From: an uncultured delta proteobacterium
GTDB taxonomy: Bacteria; Desulfobacterota; Desulfobaccia; Desulfobaccales; 0-14-0-80-60-11
DNA length: 64,000 nt
Assembly: GCA_963834795.1 (NCBI GenBank)
Contig: CAWIDL010000021.1
Location: forward strand, 29,938 to 93,937
Reading direction: 5' to 3'
Shown here: one piece after another, positions 1-56,953 of the stretch
Numbering within the stretch: position 1 is the first letter of the stretch
How the letters are laid out: each line of letters opens with the position of its first letter
Position numbers and translations under genes: made by a program
The notes under the pieces: generated by a model
Database searches by the model: none
Told to the model about the DNA's origin: nothing
Seen by the model: the letters and a program-made list of their open reading frames with translations, nothing else

Positions 1-276
1 TGTACCGGGATCCAGAGTCGCAATTTCCAGGTGGGTTTCAAGCTGGGGCAGGGCCAGGCCCTGGAGCAAATCCTGGGAGCCATGACCATGGTGGCGGAAG
101 GAGTCAAGGCCTCCCGGGCGGCGCACCTGCTGGCGGAGAGGCTGGGAGTGGAAGTGCCCCTGGTGACCGCCATCTACAAGATTCTCTATGAAGGCCTGGC
201 CCCCAAGGAAGCCATTAAAAAACTGATGACCCGGGAACTCAAAGACGAACTGGAAGCCATGAGCGAAACCTGGTAA
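1..276 (+). CDS. gpsA: NAD(P)H-dependent glycerol-3-phosphate dehydrogenase, C-terminal part (5' truncated by window)
   Basis: Frame 1 is open from base 1: CTGIQSRN...VAEGV...VEVPLVTAIY..LMTR, the typical GpsA C-terminus. Confidence 0.9.
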   Translation, partial: CTGIQSRNFQVGFKLGQGQALEQILGAMTMVAEGVKASRAAHLLAERLGVEVPLVTAIYKILYEGLAPKEAIKKLMTRELKDELEAMSETW

Positions 277-281
277 TCCCG

Positions 282-1619
282 ATGACCAACGATCCCATCG
301 AAGTCCAAATTCCCGTAATCGGGGAGTGCAGGGTAAATTCCCCCATATCCCGCGCCCCCATGTGCACCCGGGATGGGCGATGCGTGCCGAAGACCTTTAT
401 CCAGGATGCCGATAAAATCCTGATCGACGACACCTTCGATTACTTGAGGAGCCTGGGGCCGGGGGAAGAGCCTCAGGCCTTTGAAATGGCCGGCCCCCGG
501 GAAAGGATCTATTTCGACCCCTCCAAGGTGCACTGCGCCATCGCCACCTGCGGCGGCCTGTGCCCCGGCACCAACGACGTCATCCGGGCCATCGTCCTGG
601 AGCTCCATTTCCTTTACGGGGTGCGCCACATCTACGGGGTACGGTACGGCCTCCGGGGATTCATCCCCCATTACGGCCATGAGCTGCAGGAACTCAACCC
701 GGAGGCGGTGGCCAACATCCACACCTTCGGGGGCACCATCCTGGGCACCTCCCGGGGCCCCCAGGACACCGGCGAGATCGCCGACGCCCTGGAGCGCATC
801 GACCTTCGCATCCTCTTTCTCATCGGCGGCGACGGCACCCTGCGGGCCGCCTACGACATCTACCAGGAGATTACCCGGCGGGAACTGCGCATCAGCGTCA
901 TCGTCATTCCCAAAACCATTGACAACGACATCCCCCTGGTGAGCCGTTCCTTCGGGTTCGACACCGCTGTGGAACAGGCCACCAGCTCCATCATGGCGGC
1001 CCATACCGAAGCGGTGGGATCCCCCAACGGCATCGGCCTGGTGAAGCTCATGGGCCGCTACTCGGGGTTCATCGCGGCCAACGCCACCCTGGCCCTGCGG
1101 GAGGTCAACTTCGTCCTGATTCCAGAAGCGGATTTTGATATCGACGGGGAGTACGGCCTGTTGGTAGAACTGGAACGGCGACTCCAGGAGCGGCAACATG
1201 CCCTGATCCTGGTAGGGGAAGGCGCCGGCCAGAAATTTTTCCGGGAGCAAGACCTGATTCGGGACCCTTCGGGGAACATCAAACCGGGAGATATCGGACT
1301 TTTCCTCCAGGAGAGGATCACGGAATACTTCCTGCAGAAAAAAATGGAAGTGAACCTCAAATACATTGACCCCAGCTACTTGATCCGCAGCATGCCGGCC
1401 AACTATAATGACCGCATCTACTGCGGCTTTCTGGGCCAAAACGCGGTGCACGCCGGCATGGCCGGCAAGACCGGTATGCTGGTGAGCCGCTGGCACGGCC
1501 ACTACGTACACATTCCCATCCAGGCCTCGGCGGGCGGGCGCCAGGAGATGGAACTCAATTCTCCCCTGTGGCGAAGCGTCGTGGAATCCACCGGCCAGCC
1601 GCCCTTGAAAAATCCATAA
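282..1619 (+). CDS. pfkA: 6-phosphofructokinase, ATP-dependent long (group X-like) type
   Basis: TCGGLCPG, GGTILGTSRG, GGDG, PKTIDND and MGR motifs; GGDG rather than GGDD points to ATP as donor. Confidence 0.9.
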   Translation: MTNDPIEVQIPVIGECRVNSPISRAPMCTRDGRCVPKTFIQDADKILIDDTFDYLRSLGPGEEPQAFEMAGPRERIYFDPSKVHCAIATCGGLCPGTNDVIRAIVLELHFLYGVRHIYGVRYGLRGFIPHYGHELQELNPEAVANIHTFGGTILGTSRGPQDTGEIADALERIDLRILFLIGGDGTLRAAYDIYQEITRRELRISVIVIPKTIDNDIPLVSRSFGFDTAVEQATSSIMAAHTEAVGSPNGIGLVKLMGRYSGFIAANATLALREVNFVLIPEADFDIDGEYGLLVELERRLQERQHALILVGEGAGQKFFREQDLIRDPSGNIKPGDIGLFLQERITEYFLQKKMEVNLKYIDPSYLIRSMPANYNDRIYCGFLGQNAVHAGMAGKTGMLVSRWHGHYVHIPIQASAGGRQEMELNSPLWRSVVESTGQPPLKNP

Positions 1620-1722
1620 AGGCGGGGGGATCCGGGGCCAGGGGAGGCAGGGCGCGCCCTGCGCACCGGGTTGGCGTACTGGGCAACCGCGTGAATTTGA
1701 AAGAAGATGTGAAGCACACCGC

Positions 1723-2124
1723 ATGGACCATACCGATAAATCTCCCGTGTTCCACTGCCGCCAATGCGGCGATTGCTGCGCCGGCCGGGGTGGCATCCAT
1801 GTGCGCCCCCAGGAAGTGGAGGCCATGGCGGCGCACCTGTCCATGTCGGTAGAGGAATTCCGCCGCAACTTCGTAGAAGCCTCCCTTACCGGGCCTCGCC
1901 TGACGGTGGCCAACGAGGTTTGCATCTTCCTGCTGGAGGGCAACAACTGCCGGGTGCACCCGGTGAAGCCCTTCATCTGCCGCCAGTGGCCCTTTCTCCC
2001 GGCACTGCTTATGGAGGCTGACGAACTGGAACACGCCAAAGGCGCCTGCCAGGGTATCAACCCGTCTTGCAGCCACGAGGAATTTGTGGCGGCGGCCTCG
2101 AGCCGGGGGCATGAGCCCAGCTGA
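1723..2124 (+). CDS. YkgJ-family (CxxCxxCC) cysteine-cluster protein
   Basis: CRQCGDCC, C-x-FL, C-x-VH-x-x-KP-x-x-C-x-x-WPF pattern. Confidence 0.85.
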   Translation: MDHTDKSPVFHCRQCGDCCAGRGGIHVRPQEVEAMAAHLSMSVEEFRRNFVEASLTGPRLTVANEVCIFLLEGNNCRVHPVKPFICRQWPFLPALLMEADELEHAKGACQGINPSCSHEEFVAAASSRGHEPS

Positions 2125-2199
2125 AACCTAATCCGTCAGCACCGCCGTCCCGCCTGAGCATTAATATATGGTGGGCAGGGGCCACCCTACAGGAGAGTC

Positions 2200-2961
2200 A
2201 TGAGAAAAATTCTAATTTGCTTTTCGATCGTTCTTTCTTTTACAGGCCTGCTGCTGGGAACCGTTCTGGCCGCCGAGCAGCCGGATGCCGTCCCCAGCGC
2301 CTTTGCGGAGGGGGTGGCGGCCCTGAACCAAGGCAATCCCGCCGCCGCCATTGATAAGTTTACTGAGGCCCTGAAGCTCAACCCGGACCTGGTGGAGGCC
2401 TACCTCAATCGGGGCGTGGCCCGCCTGAGGCTGGACCAGCCGGTGGAAGCGGTGGCCGATTTTGATAAGGCCCTGGAATTGGCCCCAACTTCTTCCGAAG
2501 CCTTATATAACCGGGCCCTGGCCTACAGCCGCAACGGCGTCTATGACAAGGCCCTGGCAGACTATACCCAGGCCTTGAAATACGCCCCCAGGGACTGGCA
2601 GATCCTATACAACCGCGGCAACACTTACCTGGATCTGGGCAAGGGAAAAGAGGCCCTGGCGGACTACGACCGGGCCTTGCAGCTCCACCCCAAGACTCCG
2701 GAGATCCTCTTTAAGCGGGGGCTGGCCCATCTGCAGCTGGGCCAGGCTGAAAAGGCCCTCAAAGACGCGGACACGGCCCAGGAACTCGATGCCGGTTTCG
2801 CCCGGGCCCAATTCCTCCGGGGCCGAGCCCTGGAAAAGCTGGATCATAAATACGAGGCCATGGCCGCCTACCGGCAATTTCTGAAGGGCGGCGACCCCGC
2901 AAAAGAAGGGACCCGGATGCAACAGGCCCTGGAGCGCCTCAAACATCTGGAAGGAAAATAA
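2200..2961 (+). CDS. Secreted tetratricopeptide-repeat protein
   Basis: Signal peptide followed by repeated AYxNRG/ALADY..AL..xP TPR units; AGGAG RBS. Confidence 0.9.
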   Translation: MRKILICFSIVLSFTGLLLGTVLAAEQPDAVPSAFAEGVAALNQGNPAAAIDKFTEALKLNPDLVEAYLNRGVARLRLDQPVEAVADFDKALELAPTSSEALYNRALAYSRNGVYDKALADYTQALKYAPRDWQILYNRGNTYLDLGKGKEALADYDRALQLHPKTPEILFKRGLAHLQLGQAEKALKDADTAQELDAGFARAQFLRGRALEKLDHKYEAMAAYRQFLKGGDPAKEGTRMQQALERLKHLEGK

Positions 2962-3061
2962 AGACAGTGGTCAGTGATTAGTGGTTCATGGTCAGTATTC
3001 AGGAAATTCCGAGAGCTACTGGCCCCGGCCACTAACCACTGTCCTGTGAACACTGGCCACT

Positions 3062-4612
3062 ATGAGCTACTACCTCACCACTCCCATCTATTACGTCAAC
3101 GCCGAGCCCCACCTGGGCCATGCCTATACCACGGTAGTGGCCGATGCCCTGGCCCGGTTTCATCGCCTCCTGGGGGTGGAGACCCGCTTCCAGACCGGCA
3201 CCGACGAGCACGGCGACAAGGTGGTAGAGGCGGCTCGCCGGGCCGGCCTGCCGGTTAAGGAGTTTGTGGATCGCATCAGCGCCCAGTTCCGCCAGACTTG
3301 GGACGAATTGGACATCAGCTACGATCGTTTCATCCGCACCACCGACCCCGACCACGTGCGGGTGGTCCAGGAGGTCCTCAGCCGGGTCCACGAGCGCGGC
3401 GACATCTACTTTGGGGAGTACGGCGGCCTTTATTGCTACGATTGTGAAGCCTTCTATCTGGAGCGGGACCTGGTGGACGGCCTCTGCCCGGACCACCGGG
3501 TCAAACCCACCTACCTCAAGGAAGAGAACTACTTCTTCCGCATGAGCAAATACCAGGGCTGGCTTCTGGACTATCTCCACGACCACCCCGGCTGGATCCA
3601 GCCGGAGCGCTACCGTAATGAGGTGCTGGCCTTCTTGCGGGAGCCCCTGGAGGATTTGTGCATCTCCCGGCCCAAGAGCCGCCTGGAATGGGGGATCACC
3701 CTCCCCTTCGATGAGCGTTACGTCACCTACGTCTGGTTCGACGCCCTCCTCAACTACCTTACGGGCTTGGGCTACCACCAGGGAGAAGCCGACCCATTCC
3801 AGAAATACCCGAATTTCTGGCCGGGCCAGCACCTCATCGCCAAGGACATCCTCAAGCCCCACGCCATCTACTGGCCGACCATGCTGGCCTCCCTGGATCT
3901 CCCGCCCTTCCAGCATCTCAACGTCCACGGCTACTGGCAGTTGGACGCCGGCAAGATGTCCAAGAGCCTGGGCAACGTGGTGGAGCCCCGGGCCCTGGCG
4001 GCCCGATACGGCGTGGACCAGGTGCGTTATTTCTTTCTCCGGGAGATGGTCTTCGGCCTGGACGCCCACTTCAGCCAGGAGGCCCTGGTCAGCCGCATCA
4101 ACGCCGACCTGGCCAACGACCTGGGCAACCTCCTGGCCCGCACCCTGGGGATGGCCTTCAAATACTGTGAAGGCAAAGTGCCGGTGCCGGGGGAGATGGC
4201 AGGCCGAGATTATAACATCCAAAACTCGGCCATGATTATTGGACCTTCTTTTTTAGAAAATTTTGAAGCCTTGGAATTTCCACGAGCTTTAGCCGACTTA
4301 TGGGATTTCATCCGCATTCTGAACCGATATATTGTAGACAACGCCCCATGGGAATTGGCCAAACGATCTTCACCCGCAGATGTCCAAAGACTGGACACAG
4401 TGCTCTACCACCTGCTGGAATCCCTGCGCTTGATCGCCGCCTTACTACAGCCAGTGATGCCCGGAAGCGCCCTCAAGATGAGCGAACACCTGGGCCTGGG
4501 TCTGCGGGACCAGCCCCTGCCCCAGGCACTGGAGTGGGGCCTCCTTCCTTCCAGGGTCTCCCTGAAACCCGGCCCGCCCCTCTTCCCCCGGATAGAGATG
4601 GAGGCGAAGTGA
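3062..4612 (+). CDS. metG: Methionine--tRNA ligase (short form, no C-terminal tRNA-binding appendix)
   Basis: YLTTPIYYVN, HLGH, GTDEHG, Zn knuckle CYDC..CPDH, YVWFDAL, KMSKS. Confidence 0.97.
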   Translation: MSYYLTTPIYYVNAEPHLGHAYTTVVADALARFHRLLGVETRFQTGTDEHGDKVVEAARRAGLPVKEFVDRISAQFRQTWDELDISYDRFIRTTDPDHVRVVQEVLSRVHERGDIYFGEYGGLYCYDCEAFYLERDLVDGLCPDHRVKPTYLKEENYFFRMSKYQGWLLDYLHDHPGWIQPERYRNEVLAFLREPLEDLCISRPKSRLEWGITLPFDERYVTYVWFDALLNYLTGLGYHQGEADPFQKYPNFWPGQHLIAKDILKPHAIYWPTMLASLDLPPFQHLNVHGYWQLDAGKMSKSLGNVVEPRALAARYGVDQVRYFFLREMVFGLDAHFSQEALVSRINADLANDLGNLLARTLGMAFKYCEGKVPVPGEMAGRDYNIQNSAMIIGPSFLENFEALEFPRALADLWDFIRILNRYIVDNAPWELAKRSSPADVQRLDTVLYHLLESLRLIAALLQPVMPGSALKMSEHLGLGLRDQPLPQALEWGLLPSRVSLKPGPPLFPRIEMEAK

Positions 4613-42635: not shown

Positions 42636-42711
42636 TGGCTCCCCGGGACGGACTCGAACCGCCGACCAAGTGGTTAACAGCCACCCGCTCTACCAGCTGA
42701 GCTACCGGGGA
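42636..42711 (-). tRNA. tRNA-Asn (GTT)
   Basis: TCCCCGG..TAGCTCAG, anticodon loop CTGTTAA, GGTTCGAGTCC, CCA end. Confidence 0.97.
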
Positions 42712-42725
42712 GTGATGTCTGCTGC

Positions 42726-42799
42726 TGGCTGGGGGACCAGGATTCGAACCTGGATAGGCAGATCCAGAGTCTGCAGTCCTGCCGTTAGACGATCCCCCA
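42726..42799 (-). tRNA. tRNA-Gln (CTG)
   Basis: TGGGGGA.., anticodon arm GCAGA-CTCTGGA-TCTGC, GGTTCGAATCC, CCA end. Confidence 0.96.
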
Positions 42800-44085: not shown

Positions 44086-45366
44086 TCAACTCTTCTGCAA
44101 TGGGTTGGCAAAAATGGCCGCGCCTCCCAGTTCCACCTCAATCTCCAGCAGCCGGTTATACTTGGCGATGCGCTCGCTGCGGCACACCGAACCGGTCTTG
44201 AGTTGGCCCCCGCCCATGGCTACGGCGAAGTCGGCGATAAAGGGGTCTTCCGTCTCCCCGGATCGATGGGAAATAACGAAGCCCCAGCCTGCCTGCCGGC
44301 ATAGATGGATGGCCTCCATGGTCTCGGTGACGGTGCCGATCTGGTTGAGCTTGATGAGTACGGCGTTGGTGGATTTTTCGGCGATCCCCCGGGCGATGAA
44401 CCGAGTGTTGGTCACGTAGTTGTCATCCCCCACGATTTGGATCCGATCCCCGAGAGCCGCGGTAAGCTCTTTGAACCCCTGCCAGTCATTTTCCGCCAGG
44501 CCGTCTTCGATGGAAACGATGGGGTATTTTCCAACCCAGACTTCATAAAGGTTAACCATCTCGGCGCTGATCTTCTGTCCCTGCTTGGATTTGCTGAGGT
44601 TATAGACCCCTTCCTCGTAGAAGGAACTGGCCGCGGGGTCCAGGGCGATGGCCAGGTCCTTGCCCGGCTGGTATCCCGCGGCGGAGATACCCTCCAGAAT
44701 CACCTCGCAAGCTTCCTCATTGCTCTGGAGATCAGGGGCGAACCCGCCTTCGTCGCCCACGTTGGTGGCATAGCCCTTTTTCTTGAGAATGGCCTTCAAG
44801 CTATGAAAGGTCTCGGAGCAGTACCGCAGAGCTTCAGTGAAAGTTGGAGCCCCGATGGGCACAATCATAAATTCCTGGAAGTCGATGCTGTTGTCGGCGT
44901 GCTTGCCGCCGTTGATCACGTTCATCTGGGGCATGGGTAAGCGTCCGGCTCCAGGGCCTCCCAGATATTGATAGAGTGGCAACCGGGCGGAGATAGCCGC
45001 GGCCCGGGCCACCGCCATGGACACCCCCAAGATGGCATTGGCCCCCAGGTTGCCTTTATTGGGGGTGCCGTCCAGGTCGATCATGAGGCGGTCGATTTCA
45101 CCCTGGCGAACGGGGTCATGGCCGACGAGATGAGAAGCGATGACCGTGTTGACGTTGTCCACGGCTTGCAGCACGCCCTTGCCGCCATAGCGTTTCTTGT
45201 CCCCATCCCGCAACTCCACGGCTTCGTTCTCGCCGGTGGAGGCGCCGGATGGCACAGACGCGGTGGCAGTGATCCCGCGGTCCAGGGTTACATAAGCCCG
45301 CAGTGTCGGGTTGCCCCGGGAATCCAGGATTTCCAGGGCCCGGACGGACACGATTTTATCACTCAT
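44086..45366 (-). CDS. eno: Enolase
   Basis: [51 protein letters not shown]. Confidence 0.98.
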
Positions 45367-45782: not shown

Positions 45783-46229
45783 TCAGCCTGAAGAGCCTGC
45801 TTTGGTCAGTAAGGCCTTGAGGTGATCTAAATATTGGAGGATTCGATAGGCCTTGGGGTCCAGGTAATTAACCAATTCCGGCGCTGGTTCGCCAAAACCT
45901 CTTAGATATTTGCCGGTCATTTCCATGACGTCCACCCAGAGAATATAACAGTGCCCCTGTATGGTTTTGGTTATGTCCTGAGAACTTTCCTTAAGGTGCA
46001 GATCATCTTTTAGTTCCTGGATGATGCCACGGATGGCGGCAATATCGGCTAGTAATAAGGCACGCCTTTCGGGATCAAGGTTATTGGTTTCATGGTAAAG
46101 GATGGAGTGCACTTCCCGCCCCTGGGCCCACTCCTCGAATTTAACCAGGGCCTCATCGAGAAGGGTGAGCGTTATCCTGATTCTGCTGTGGTGTGCCTCA
46201 CTAAGGTTTGGAATAGATCCTACCGGCAT
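45783..46229 (-). CDS. Hypothetical helical protein, first gene under the left fluoride riboswitch
   Basis: L.E.H..RI..TL..LD, YLRGFGE motif; start set at MPVG (46229). Confidence 0.75.
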   Translation of the reverse strand: MPVGSIPNLSEAHHSRIRITLTLLDEALVKFEEWAQGREVHSILYHETNNLDPERRALLLADIAAIRGIIQELKDDLHLKESSQDITKTIQGHCYILWVDVMEMTGKYLRGFGEPAPELVNYLDPKAYRILQYLDHLKALLTKAGSSG

Positions 46230-46449
46230 TATGCAGACATCCTTGCAGCCCTTTGCATCATTGCGGGGCCTCATAACTTAAATCATCCGCTGAATTAACA
46301 CTGTAAGATTATATTTAATGTAATTCAAGTCATCGTGGTCATGGCTTTTTCGCCTCTTATCAAAGGCATTCTCACCCGTTTAAAGGACAGTGCGGCGTGC
46401 CAGACTTGTCCACTATGGTCCTCCCGAAACCGGTGCAGCCGCAGCCCAT

Positions 46450-46490
46450 AAAAAAAAGCTCCTGATCTCACCAAAGGTGAAATCAGGAGC
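46450..46490 (-). terminator. Intrinsic terminator of the left fluoride riboswitch
   Basis: GCTCCTGAT-TTCACC-TTT-GGTGAG-ATCAGGAGC then T8 on the minus strand; overlaps the aptamer 3' strand. Confidence 0.88.
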
Positions 46491-46547
46491 CATCAGTGTC
46501 ATCACATTTCGGGCAGATTATCCTCGCCCCGGCGGACTCCATCGCCC
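46484..46547 (-). ncRNA. Fluoride (crcB) riboswitch, left copy
   Basis: GGCGATGGAGTCCGCC...CTGATGGCTCCTG: P1 plus GGAGU/GCUCC pseudoknot, matching the crcB consensus. Confidence 0.88.
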
Positions 46548-46552
46548 TGGAT

Positions 46553-46581
46553 AACTTAACCCCGGTCCCCGGCTTGGTCAA
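46553..46581 (-). promoter_or_regulatory. Sigma70 promoter for the left riboswitch
   Basis: TTGACC-N17-TAAGTT, 5 nt upstream of the aptamer. Confidence 0.7.
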
Positions 46582-46620: not shown

Positions 46621-46650
46621 TTGACATCAAGGCTCTTTTGGAGAAATAAT
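46621..46650 (+). promoter_or_regulatory. Sigma70 promoter for the right riboswitch
   Basis: TTGACA-N18-AATAAT. Confidence 0.65.
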
Positions 46651-46661
46651 TTAAGCTACGA

Positions 46662-46717
46662 GGGCGATGAAGTCCGCCTTAATTGTTCGCGGTGGCCCGT
46701 GGGCTGATGACTTCTGC
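46662..46717 (+). ncRNA. Fluoride (crcB) riboswitch, right copy
   Basis: GGCGATGAAGTCCGCC-TTAA...GCTGATGACTTCTGC with GAAGUC/GACUUC pseudoknot. Confidence 0.9.
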
Positions 46718-46744
46718 TCATTTTAAGGGGCAGAAGTTTTTTTT
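46710..46744 (+). terminator. Intrinsic terminator of the right fluoride riboswitch
   Basis: ACTTCTGC...GCAGAAGT followed by a T run; sequesters the pseudoknot strand. Confidence 0.88.
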
Positions 46745-46767
46745 GCCCCTCATAACCGGGAGAAGTT

Positions 46768-48522
46768 ATGGGAGTTTACCGGGAACTGAAAGAAGACCTG
46801 GAAGGGGAGCTGCGCCGACTGGCCGCGCTACCTGAAGTGAGGGAGCCGCGCCTGGCGCAGCTGCTGGACAAGTTGCGGGAAAACCGCTTCAATCTGGTGA
46901 TCCTGGGCGCCTTTAAACGGGGGAAAAGCACCCTGATCAACGCCTTGATGGGTGAGGCCGTGCTGCCCACGTCCATCATCCCCCTCACTTCGGTGGTTAC
47001 CATCCTGGGTTACGGCGAACGCCTGGAGATCCTCGTCCATTTTCAAAACGGCCAACGCACCGTTATTACCCAGGGGGAATTGGCGGCTTATATCACCGAG
47101 AAGGGCAATCCCAGGAACCATAAAGGGGTGCGGGAGGTGGAGATCGCCTATCCCTCAGATTATCTCCGGGACGGGGTGCGCATCATCGACACCCCGGGGG
47201 TGGGCTCGGTCTATAGTCACAACTCTGAAGTCGCTTATAATTATCTCCCCCAGGTGGACGCCGCCGTCTTCGTGGTTACCGTGGACCCGCCCCTGTCCGC
47301 CGCTGAAGAGGATTTCTTGAAGGATATCCGGGAATATGCCCACAAGCTATTCTTCGTTCTGAATAAGATCGACTATGTGGCTGAGGCTGAGCGGCAAGAG
47401 GCCCTGGACTTTACCGCGGAGGTCCTGCGCGGCAACCTGGCAGGCCAAAGGCTGATGATCTTTCCGCTCTCCGCCAAGCTGGGCCTGGAAGGCAAGGCCA
47501 ATGGCGGCTCCGCAATGTTGACTGCCAGTCTCCTCCCCCAATTTGAAGATTACCTGCGCCGGTTTCTTTATCAGGAAAAGGGCCGGGTATTGCTGATTTC
47601 CTGTATCAACGGGGCCCTGAAAGCCCTGAATGACTCCACCCTGGCCCTCAAGGTGGAACGCCAGGCCGGCGCCATCCCTCTGAAAGAGCTGGAGGAGAAA
47701 ATCGCCCGCTTCAACCAGGAATTGCAGGGACTGGAGAAGGAACGGGAGATGTCCCTCTTCCTGTTGGATGGGCGAGTCAAAGGGCTATTGGAGGAGTTGA
47801 ACCGCGACCTGGAAGCCTTTAAGCGGGAAACCGACGCCCAGCTGCGCCGGGAAGTGGAGGCCGAGTTCCACCGGAAAAGCCGCCTGGCCCTCGACCTGCG
47901 GAAGGAGATGGAAGGATACCTGTTCGCGGCGTTGCGGGATGTCTTCCTGGATTGGCGGCGCCGCGAAGTTGAGAAACTGGCGCTGTCGCTGGCCGACACC
48001 CAGCAGGAGTTCGCCGCCCGGATTAACGGCATCCTGGAGCGCCTGACGCAATTGACCGCCCGGATCTTTGACTTTTCCCTGCGGGGTTTCGCGGCGGAGG
48101 AAACCTTCACTGAAAAGAGCCACTTCGGGTTCAAATTTAAAGAAGAACCGGTGGGCCTGGAAATCCTGCAAATGACCGTGGCTTCCTTGCTCCCCCGGGC
48201 CCTTACCACGGGCCTGCTGCTCAAAAAGCTTCTGGAAAACGTGGCTGAATTGGTGGATAAGCATTGCGGCCGCCTGCGTTACGATTTCCAGCAGCGACTC
48301 CAGGAATTGACCCGGGATTTTCGGAAAGACTGGCTCTCCAGGATCGATGACACCACCCAAAGCATTCGTCAGGCGCTGGAGCGGGCCAGGGCTCTGAAGC
48401 AGAGCAGCGCCCAGGCGGCGGCGCGGCGGGCCGGAGAAATGGAGCAAAGATTAACCGAAATCTCCCGGGGTGAAGGCACTTTATTGGAATTGAAGGCCCG
48501 GGTTGAAAAGTCCCTACCCTGA
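46768..48522 (+). CDS. Bacterial dynamin-like GTPase
   Basis: G1 GAFKRGKST, G2 P.T, G3 DTPG, G4 NKID, SAK; long helical C-terminal stalk. Confidence 0.92.
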   Translation: MGVYRELKEDLEGELRRLAALPEVREPRLAQLLDKLRENRFNLVILGAFKRGKSTLINALMGEAVLPTSIIPLTSVVTILGYGERLEILVHFQNGQRTVITQGELAAYITEKGNPRNHKGVREVEIAYPSDYLRDGVRIIDTPGVGSVYSHNSEVAYNYLPQVDAAVFVVTVDPPLSAAEEDFLKDIREYAHKLFFVLNKIDYVAEAERQEALDFTAEVLRGNLAGQRLMIFPLSAKLGLEGKANGGSAMLTASLLPQFEDYLRRFLYQEKGRVLLISCINGALKALNDSTLALKVERQAGAIPLKELEEKIARFNQELQGLEKEREMSLFLLDGRVKGLLEELNRDLEAFKRETDAQLRREVEAEFHRKSRLALDLRKEMEGYLFAALRDVFLDWRRREVEKLALSLADTQQEFAARINGILERLTQLTARIFDFSLRGFAAEETFTEKSHFGFKFKEEPVGLEILQMTVASLLPRALTTGLLLKKLLENVAELVDKHCGRLRYDFQQRLQELTRDFRKDWLSRIDDTTQSIRQALERARALKQSSAQAAARRAGEMEQRLTEISRGEGTLLELKARVEKSLP

Positions 48523-48633: not shown

Positions 48634-48915
48634 ATGAAAGACTTTGAAGAAATCATCCGGCAGCAGAAGCTCCCCGAAGTAGGGCAGGTGGTGCGCAGCA
48701 GGAAATACGGCACCAAATGGCGCGTCATGGAGAAGAAAGAGGTTTGGCAGAACGTCGACCCCGACCCCAAAACCGGGGAGTCCCGCATGATCCCGGCCGT
48801 CTATCTCAATTTCTGGAGGGTCCAGGAAGGGGTCATGCCGGGGGTGGGCAGGATGATGGGGTTTCTGTACACCCTTTACGACAACACCTTCGAACTCAAC
48901 TGGGAACTCACCTGA
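48634..48915 (+). CDS. Hypothetical protein
   Basis: GGAGGTGA RBS, host-like codon usage. Confidence 0.75.
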   Translation: MKDFEEIIRQQKLPEVGQVVRSRKYGTKWRVMEKKEVWQNVDPDPKTGESRMIPAVYLNFWRVQEGVMPGVGRMMGFLYTLYDNTFELNWELT

Positions 48916-49010: not shown

Positions 49011-49646
49011 ATGACCCGGATCATCCTGGTGCGCCACGGCCAGACCCCCTGGAACAAGGATAGGATCTTTCGCGGCTCCCGGGACATCCCCCTGAACGAC
49101 ACCGGCCGGGAAGAAGCCCGGCTGGCGGGGGAATGGCTCAAGGGAGAGGCCATCCAGGCCGCCTACTGCTCCCCCCTGTCCCGGGCCCGGGACACCGGCG
49201 AGGCCATCGCCCGGCACCACGGCCTGCGGGTGGAAGATTTGCCGGGACTGAGCGATCTCTGCTACGGAGATTGGGAAGGCCTGCCCCTGACGGAGGTCAA
49301 GGTGAAATACGCCGACCTCTACCATCGCTGGGAGACCGCCCCCCACACCGTGCGCTTTCCCCAGGGTGAAACCCTGGAAGAGGTGAAGCAACGGGGGCTG
49401 GCCGCGGTGGCCGGGGTGGTGGCCCGCCACCCGGACCAAACCGTCCTGCTGGCAGCCCACCGCGCGGTGAACAAGGTCCTCATCGCCGCCTTCATCGGCC
49501 TGGATAACTCGAACTTCTGGCGCATCGGCCAGGACACCACCGCCATCAACCGCTTCCATTGGACGGGCGGCACCTGGCAGATCGTGTCACTCAACGACAC
49601 CTGCCACCTGCGAGGCCTGAGTCGCGGCGAGTACGTGGATTTTTAG
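49011..49646 (+). CDS. Histidine phosphatase (phosphoglycerate mutase/CobC family)
   Basis: LVRHGQT.WN, SPL.RA..T, G.WEG, LNDT.HL. Confidence 0.93.
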   Translation: MTRIILVRHGQTPWNKDRIFRGSRDIPLNDTGREEARLAGEWLKGEAIQAAYCSPLSRARDTGEAIARHHGLRVEDLPGLSDLCYGDWEGLPLTEVKVKYADLYHRWETAPHTVRFPQGETLEEVKQRGLAAVAGVVARHPDQTVLLAAHRAVNKVLIAAFIGLDNSNFWRIGQDTTAINRFHWTGGTWQIVSLNDTCHLRGLSRGEYVDF

Positions 49647-56874: not shown

Positions 56875-56953
56875 GCCCCCGTAGCTCAGAAATGGACAGA
56901 GCAAAGGATTCCTAATCCTTGTGTCCCGAGTTCGAGTCTCGGCGGGGGCGCCA
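56875..56953 (+). tRNA. tRNA-Arg (CCT)
   Basis: GCCCCCG..TAGCTCAG, anticodon arm AAGGA-TTCCTAA-TCCTT, GTTCGAGTC, CCA end. Confidence 0.95.

Follow-up and report, generated by a model that had tools for sequence, protein, structure and literature searches.

A widespread family of bacterial dynamin-like proteins encoded behind fluoride riboswitches

The classical operons with fluoride riboswitches (Rfam family RF01734) contain crcB (Fluc), eriC-F (CLC-F), or genes for Na+/H+ antiporters, enolase, pyrophosphatase, HAD proteins, or formate hydrogenlyase. These riboswitches are credited with the recognition of CrcB and CLC-F as fluoride exporters (PMC7266159), and the fluoride response has so far been explained, as a 2024 review describes it, by export, by pH and ion homeostasis, and by enzyme dosage (PMC11139923). 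Here we describe a fluoride riboswitch that lies directly upstream of a gene for a bacterial dynamin-like protein (DLP). We analyzed a stretch of 64,000 nucleotides (nt), which we will call the window, from an uncultured delta proteobacterium of the order Desulfobaccales (GenBank assembly GCA_963834795.1, contig CAWIDL010000021.1, positions 29,938 to 93,937 of the forward strand). All coordinates are positions in the window unless another sequence is named. The locus resembles the classical operons in that it has the same class of riboswitch and the same overlap between riboswitch and terminator, and several of the classical genes adjoin the DLP gene in related loci. It differs in that the regulated gene encodes a GTPase of the membrane-remodeling type.

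Three characterized members of the dynamin superfamily are useful for comparison. BDLP from Nostoc punctiforme (PDB 2j68 and 2j69) is about 100 residues longer than our DLP and has a defined hydrophobic paddle; we know of no link between BDLP and fluoride. IniA from Mycobacterium smegmatis and M. tuberculosis (PDB 6j72 and 6j73) shares its operon, iniBAC, with another DLP, IniC, and protein regulators mediate its induction by drugs that act on the cell wall. IniA is described as a drug-induced protein that mediates membrane fission (PMC6715688). At about 1,190 residues, DynA from Bacillus subtilis is a fusion protein with two heads. It is reported to act in membrane surveillance and in phage resistance (PMC8844932). 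Most of the bacterial DLPs that have been described are said to act in pairs (PMC6104087).

When we scanned the entire window with Rfam, we found the aptamer of the fluoride riboswitch at 46654–46723 on the plus strand, with a score of 37.8 bits (E = 7.2e-07; the gathering score is 34). The core of the riboswitch is present in the alignment to the Rfam consensus, including the P1 helix (GGCGAUG..GU.CGCC) and the 3' tail (CUGAUGACU.CU), and these columns are invariant or nearly so in our alignment of 34 riboswitch sequences (A2). (Matches to mir-1538 and mir-2001 in the E-value scan were far under their cut-offs, and we disregarded them as chance hits.) A promoter-like sequence, TTGACA-18-AATAAT (46621–46650, plus strand), ends 4 nt 5' of the aptamer; it agrees with the consensus at 11 of 12 positions and is a pattern match only. 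An intrinsic terminator (46709–46744, plus strand) is formed by an 11-pair hairpin (46709–46738) and a run of eight Ts (46737–46744). The start of the hairpin lies 15 nt inside the 3' end of the aptamer match, so that the 5' arm of the hairpin and the 3' part of the aptamer overlap. The leader is predicted to fold more stably than shuffled versions of itself (z = -4.3; none of 200 shuffles was as good). There are 23 nt between the last T of the terminator (46744) and the ATG of the DLP gene at 46768, and a Shine-Dalgarno-like GGGAG lies 5–9 nt upstream of the ATG.

Given the anatomy of the leader and the established behavior of this class of riboswitch, we infer that the terminator serves as the expression platform and that the riboswitch is an ON switch, in which fluoride binding blocks termination. 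For the crcB motif, overlapping terminators were taken to imply higher expression with the ligand (Weinberg 2010, PMC2864571). At low fluoride, the terminator would form and transcription would halt ahead of the DLP gene. The fluoride-bound aptamer would instead retain the 5' arm of the terminator, and the polymerase would read into the gene. A preliminary description of the window had placed a dynamin-like GTPase directly behind a fluoride riboswitch, with the ATG about 24 nt after the terminator. The matches to Rfam and to Pfam (below) agree with this, and for the plus-strand riboswitch and the DLP it was right in every detail that could be checked. It overlooked a second, divergent riboswitch on the minus strand, to which we return below.

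The pairing of riboswitch and DLP is conserved in close relatives. We compared 25 related loci from the Desulfobaccales (57–96% identity), and in 23 of these the 5' end of the DLP gene is present (it is missing from L011 and L028). All 23 have a match to RF01734 above the cut-off directly upstream of the gene and on the same strand. We also searched 83 genomes of the order with RF01734 and with the DLP (protein E ≤ 1e-40). The riboswitch was found in 64 of the 83 genomes and the DLP in 54. Comparing coordinates by hand, we found that at least 53 of the 54 DLP copies with an N-terminus have RF01734 on the same strand, 40–50 nt upstream. Among the matches listed, the exception is genome G036, whose riboswitch may be among 23 further matches. 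Because the 83 genomes overlap the 25 loci and are kin, these counts indicate conservation and not independent events. We also saw riboswitches ahead of DLP genes that are broken by stop codons or frameshifts (G066:C24:39649–41389, G005:C4:88051–89603, L026, L046, and L074); these may reflect gene decay or assembly errors.

To look beyond the order, we used an exhaustive profile-free search, which returned 2,231 cluster representatives with E ≤ 1e-30. Many of these are full-length (about 590 amino acids) and are 30–45% identical to the DLP. We aligned 46 of the representatives (A1) and used the alignment to retrieve 80 loci, of which 69 are distant (33–48% identity). We then ran a covariance model built from 34 local riboswitches (R1) on all 80 loci. 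Among the 68 distant loci that could be assessed (L060 has no upstream DNA), 42 have an R1 match (21.9–56.1 bits) on the same strand and at most 300 nt away from where the DLP is predicted to start. Another 7 of the 68 have a match 0.9–2.3 kb upstream, and in 6 of these 7, the intervening genes are on the same strand. Since R1 was built from local sequences, we checked 20 chosen R1-positive distant loci against Rfam, and 18 of them reached Rfam's gathering score at the same coordinates. By their NCBI labels, the proximal pairs are from Thermodesulfobacteriota, Nitrospirota, Actinomycetota, Bacillota (Thermovenabulum), and Aquificota.

The overlap between aptamer and terminator is also common. 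Counting the window, there are 54 proximal loci, and in 41 of these, a hairpin with a T-run overlaps the aptamer match, starting 13–20 nt ahead of its 3' end. In 8 others, a terminator-like hairpin lies further downstream, and no such hairpin was detected in the remaining 5.

The association is therefore not unique to this genome; the preliminary description had named such uniqueness among the things that would count against its proposal. Its claim that the DLP is under the control of a fluoride riboswitch is borne out by the conserved pairing and by the counts of riboswitch-DLP pairs across genomes. Fluoride control of the DLP is well supported by these comparisons, and this family of proteins of about 590 amino acids is widespread and appears to be wired by default to fluoride riboswitches, with its genes lying among those for fluoride defense.

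We also inferred a phylogeny of 78 family members with a fast maximum-likelihood method. Three broken or cut sequences (L046, L074, and L095) were omitted, as were the first set of loci (L004–L028), although six of these recur as L029, L030, L033, L035, L037, and L048. Riboswitch-linked proteins are found in every major branch of the tree, and at least seven changes of state are needed to explain the distribution. One clade without the riboswitch comprises 11 proteins from the Syntrophobacteraceae. This clade looks like a paralogue, because L045 (with the riboswitch) and L107 (without) are from the same metagenome-assembled genome. In seven loci of this clade (L066, L076, L083, L089, L100, L104, and L107), the DLP gene is divergent to a gene for an SLT_2 lytic transglycosylase, which lies upstream on the minus strand.

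Could the link to fluoride be incidental? The DLP might be a general stress or phage-defense dynamin that happens to lie within a fluoride island and is not meaningfully controlled by the riboswitch. Some members of the family do lack the riboswitch, and phage resistance is among the reported functions of DynA (PMC8844932). But the DLP gene has its own riboswitch and terminator directly upstream, and this arrangement is kept in nearly all of the Desulfobaccales copies and across phyla while the neighboring genes change. Also, the 3.43-Mb genome has just two matches to RF01734, and both are at the DLP locus. We consider an incidental link to be extremely unlikely.

The DLP itself (P0001; 46768–48522, plus strand) is an open reading frame (ORF) of 584 amino acids. 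Residues 44–200 match Pfam's Dynamin_N (E = 2.9e-27; 96.2 bits, as compared to a cut-off of 27). The motifs G1 (GAFKRGKST), G3 (DTPG), and G4 (NKID), as well as Thr74 of switch I, are invariant across the 46 aligned family members, so the DLP should be an active GTPase. In a sequence search against PDB, the best match was BDLP (2j68; E = 7.8e-22, residues 35–290), and IniA was also found (E = 2.6e-12). The AlphaFold (AF2) model of the DLP has a predicted local distance difference test (pLDDT) score of 83.3 and a predicted template modeling (pTM) score of 0.71. It consists of a G domain and long paired helices (residues 271–582), and in the model, these helices form a neck and trunk like those of the BDLP/mitofusin fold, which fold back on the G domain. 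Using Foldseek with this model, we found IniA (E = 1.2e-22, with a TM score of about 0.46) and BDLP (E = 3e-21), followed by SynDLP, the C. jejuni DLP1/2 pair, and mitofusins, with a probability of 1.00 throughout. In the family alignment, the tip of the trunk (residues 439–471) has a conserved cluster of aromatic and hydrophobic residues, of the type S-x-F-Y-Y.

IniA is the best structural match, and the two proteins share a G domain followed by a neck and trunk of helices that end in a loop. As is proposed for the DLP, IniA is switched on by chemical stress and acts on membranes (PMC6715688). In contrast, IniA is just 19–20% identical to the DLP in the structural alignment, and the DLP is single and is led by a fluoride riboswitch. 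BDLP, which is the best match by sequence and the second-best by fold, shares the motifs of the G domain and the trunk; at the tip, the DLP has a loop of about 33 residues that was modeled with low confidence and carries the aromatic cluster. The DLP belongs to the same superfamily as DynA, and like DynA (PMC8844932), it is proposed to maintain membranes under stress. We rejected the idea that the DLP is an orthologue of DynA, as its score against the NCBIfam model for DynA (NF052648) is 77.4 bits, far below the cut-off of 1600. The other NCBIfam matches, to LeoA/HP0731 (NF041922; 25.6 bits, as compared to 325) and to CrfC, are below threshold as well.

Putting the leader and the protein together, we think it somewhat likely that this locus is a fluoride-inducible unit and that the role of the DLP is to maintain or remodel the membrane when the cell is exposed to fluoride or acid stress. 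Once induced, the DLP would most likely bind the cytoplasmic membrane via the aromatic loop in which its helical trunk ends. Fluoride enters as hydrogen fluoride (HF), and GTP-driven assembly of the DLP would seal or reshape the membrane under the combined stress of fluoride and acid. Its role would be comparable to that of IniA or DynA under drug, pore, or phage stress. We favor a membrane role because of the fold and the closest relatives of the DLP, the precedents of IniA and DynA, the membrane-centered neighbors (below), and the effect of fluoride on membranes: fluoride stress is reported to alter their structure and integrity (PMC11139923).

There is also a weak hint that the gene is expressed. 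We found metatranscriptome contigs, from two studies, that are 90–99% identical to parts of the DLP gene and of orf93, a small gene just downstream. (Two of the matching RNA runs are labeled as peat metagenome.) One contig of 212 nt (X2 record 5), which is 94% alike, spans 46697–46907, that is, across the terminator and the start codon into the coding region. The RNA runs contain just small shares of the stretch (0.05–0.17 of words), so the uncovered parts are uninformative either way.

Several observations weigh against a fluoride-induced role at the membrane. The tip of the trunk (residues 439–471) was modeled at pLDDT < 50, which leaves membrane binding tentative, and the AF2 model shows no evident transmembrane segment. 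Unlike the paired DLPs, the DLP is a lone gene, with no second Dynamin_N ORF among the window neighbors that we scanned. Seventeen of the 68 distant homologs have no riboswitch in the 2.5 kb that we fetched, and 2 of the 68 (L093 and L103) have weak matches only; in the cross-check, L049 and L103 were below Rfam's cut-off. The RNA contigs are assemblies from libraries of relatives, so they attest to presence but not to the strand, ends, or level of a transcript, and some of them may stem from carried-over DNA. The link from fluoride to membrane damage is given in general terms only in the available text of PMC11139923. Finally, we found no link between dynamins and fluoride riboswitches in the searchable literature, but this class of genes may be listed in the regulon tables of Baker et al. 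2012.

The distribution of fluoride exporters bears on how the DLP might act. We did not find CrcB (PF02537) in this genome, which has a completeness of 97.5%. Of 14 further genomes of the genus (G001–G014), 12 likewise gave no match, among them G008, which is a single contig. All 14 of these genomes have kept the riboswitch-DLP unit. The only CLC protein in the genome (L003) has a GKEGP motif and C-terminal CBS domains, which we take to be the marks of a canonical, chloride-type CLC. By these criteria, it is unlikely to be a hidden fluoride exporter.

A DLP that is retained where CrcB is absent, in a genome whose only CLC looks canonical, raises the possibility that fluoride acts directly on the protein. 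GDP-metal-fluoride could lock the G domains together as dimers, leading to a stable membrane coat or to the shedding of vesicles, and hence to fluoride tolerance that does not depend on Fluc. However, no feature of the sequence singles out fluoride binding, the G motifs are ordinary, and many organisms with the DLP have CrcB right beside it. We view fluoride-triggered assembly as very unlikely. A bolder version of this idea, which we rate as similarly doubtful, is that the DLP is the core of an exporter-independent defense: fluoride would both induce the gene and, as a GDP-metal-fluoride complex, lock the protein into an assembly on the membrane. This assembly would either protect the membrane from HF-linked damage by sealing it or release vesicles laden with fluoride.

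The second, divergent riboswitch lies at 46477–46555 on the minus strand. Its score for RF01734 (33.1 bits) is just under the cut-off of 34, while the riboswitches found at the equivalent position in relatives reach 34.7–53.6 bits. It has its own terminator, a 16-pair hairpin with a T-run (46457–46491, minus strand). Behind it are, in order, an ORF of 163 amino acids with no match in Pfam or NCBIfam (45783–46274, minus strand) and enolase (44086–45366, minus strand; TIGR01060, E = 6.5e-194). The other enolase of this genome is on contig C4, so the copy that is apparently fluoride-regulated is the second one. In relatives, the genes behind the divergent riboswitch vary: they may be a Na+/H+ exchanger and Usp; CrcB, DUF190/CBS, and a Na+/H+ exchanger; or a pair of MutS_V genes. 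A homolog of the 163-amino-acid protein (33% identity) also pairs with a riboswitch-led enolase in the Syntrophobacter locus L041, in the reversed gene order (83–559 and 556–1869, both on the minus strand).

The second copy of enolase is a clear case of gene dosage or replacement within this regulon, and the DLP could be viewed in the same way. Dynamin-family GTPases are trapped by GDP-AlF4-. If GDP-metal-fluoride mimics (with Mg2+ or trace Al3+) trap the cell's GTPases, then an extra or fluoride-tolerant DLP might be made as compensation or as a replacement, so that a function the cell already has can continue. The genome does encode another Dynamin_N protein that is not linked to a riboswitch (739 amino acids, on contig C19). 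But this protein is only remotely related to the DLP: they are 34% identical over just 88 residues around the P-loop (E = 3e-09) and are barely related otherwise, so the DLP is not its duplicate. The remaining Dynamin_N matches in the genome (on contigs C25 and C22) are weak and cover the P-loop only. Dosage makes sense for enolase, whose two copies are similar, but the DLP is a poor fit, as its sole relative in the genome is remote. Furthermore, the riboswitch-linked DLPs form a widespread family of their own, and we did not see essential GTPases among the neighbors that we examined. The preliminary description had tentatively offered two functions, membrane repair or vesiculation on the one hand and compensation for metal-fluoride inhibition of the GTPase on the other. 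The evidence leans towards a role at the membrane, and we consider compensation for metal-fluoride inhibition to be less likely, indeed unlikely.

Downstream of the DLP is orf93 (48634–48915, plus strand), a conserved ORF of 93 amino acids with no match in Pfam. In a protein atlas, it falls in unnamed clusters of hypothetical proteins only. It lies about 110 nt 3' of the DLP gene in 22 of the 25 Desulfobaccales loci, and we did not detect a plus-strand terminator in the gap between them, so orf93 is probably cotranscribed with the DLP. The next gene encodes a phosphoglycerate-mutase-like histidine phosphatase (49011–49646, plus strand; His_Phos_1, E = 3.8e-64), and genes for this family come after orf93 or the DLP in most of the Desulfobaccales loci. 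The phosphatase is possibly the last gene of the unit, and there is a weak terminator-like site at 49622–49638. Read-through from the riboswitch would probably go on into both orf93 and the phosphatase gene.

Relatives of orf93 are associated with fluoride riboswitches in other settings as well. The family is found by itself directly behind other fluoride riboswitches (L017:1102–1509 and L049:1368–1652). In one of these loci (L017:1089–3724, plus strand), a third fluoride riboswitch is followed by the orf93-like gene and then by formate-tetrahydrofolate ligase. Elsewhere, orf93 is fused to the C-terminus of a Na+/H+ exchanger (L039:236–1948, minus strand, and L062:4304–5797). Because of these fusions, we suggest that orf93 might be a cytoplasmic regulatory domain of fluoride-linked antiporters.

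Across the loci, the neighbors of the DLP are genes of the fluoride regulon: CrcB, DUF190, Na_H_Exchanger, Usp, enolase, HAD hydrolase, and MutS_V. Most of these classes are named as riboswitch-associated in the 2024 review (PMC11139923). In Thermodesulfovibrionales, the unit consists of the riboswitch, a Na+/H+ exchanger, Usp, the DLP, HEAT_2, and HAD; in Nitrospirota, we see CrcB, DUF190, the riboswitch, the DLP, and enolase. In single loci, the DLP is ahead of an MFS transporter, a HIT protein, a cyclopropane-fatty-acid synthase, or a MoxR ATPase with DUF58. The synthase, a cyclopropane-fatty-acyl-phospholipid synthase from Desulfonema (L049:4214–5323, plus strand), is directly 3' of a riboswitch-led DLP, and the MoxR-type AAA_3 ATPase and DUF58 protein are 3' of the DLP in Thermovenabulum (L091:4161–6294, plus strand).

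These neighbors suggest another way in which the DLP might act at the membrane. Instead of repairing it, the DLP could organize, insert, or cluster CrcB or Na+/H+ antiporters, or it could take part, during stress, in membrane remodeling that is linked to the septum or the cell wall. Genes for Na_H_Exchanger, CrcB, and MFS proteins share riboswitch-led units with the DLP; the fusions of orf93 to Na+/H+ exchangers point in the same direction; and the riboswitch-less paralogues in Syntrophobacteraceae adjoin a lytic transglycosylase. Yet neither of the riboswitch units in this window includes a transporter, and no partner gene is constant across phyla. On balance, a helper function of this kind seems improbable to us.

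We also made a few observations about the surroundings of the DLP locus and its relatives. Two adjacent tRNA genes about 4 kb upstream of the DLP (42639–42799, minus strand) mark the edge of an island of fluoride-related genes that varies between relatives; a further site recorded with them is at 56875–56950 (plus strand). In L007, two MutS_V genes (503–3651, plus strand) lie between the riboswitch region of the DLP and a further fluoride riboswitch (28–106, minus strand); MutS-related genes are a long-standing and unexplained associate of the riboswitch (PMC2864571). Two related loci contain a cobalamin riboswitch and a fragment of a group II intron (L021:7860–8047 and L020:7551–7718).

Both this class of riboswitch and the dynamin superfamily are well known, but the conserved coupling of the two, and with it a DLP family that appears to be dedicated to fluoride, is apparently undescribed. 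The 2024 review of the fluoride response (PMC11139923) does not contain the words "dynamin" or "GTP", and the available text of this review and of two other articles (PMC7266159 and PMC2864571) does not name a dynamin-type GTPase as a target of the riboswitch. So, as far as the literature can be searched, this does seem to be a little-studied arm of the response, as the preliminary description proposed.

Fluoride riboswitches are dependable guides to the genes that are important under fluoride stress. If our interpretation is correct, it may be relevant to engineering microbes that tolerate the fluoride released by the breakdown of organofluorine compounds, which is a theme of the 2024 review (PMC11139923). 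A family of DLPs that has kept this switch across phyla would add a membrane-level arm to the fluoride response. And bacterial DLPs, whose natural triggers are mostly unknown, would gain an inducer that is defined and easily applied.

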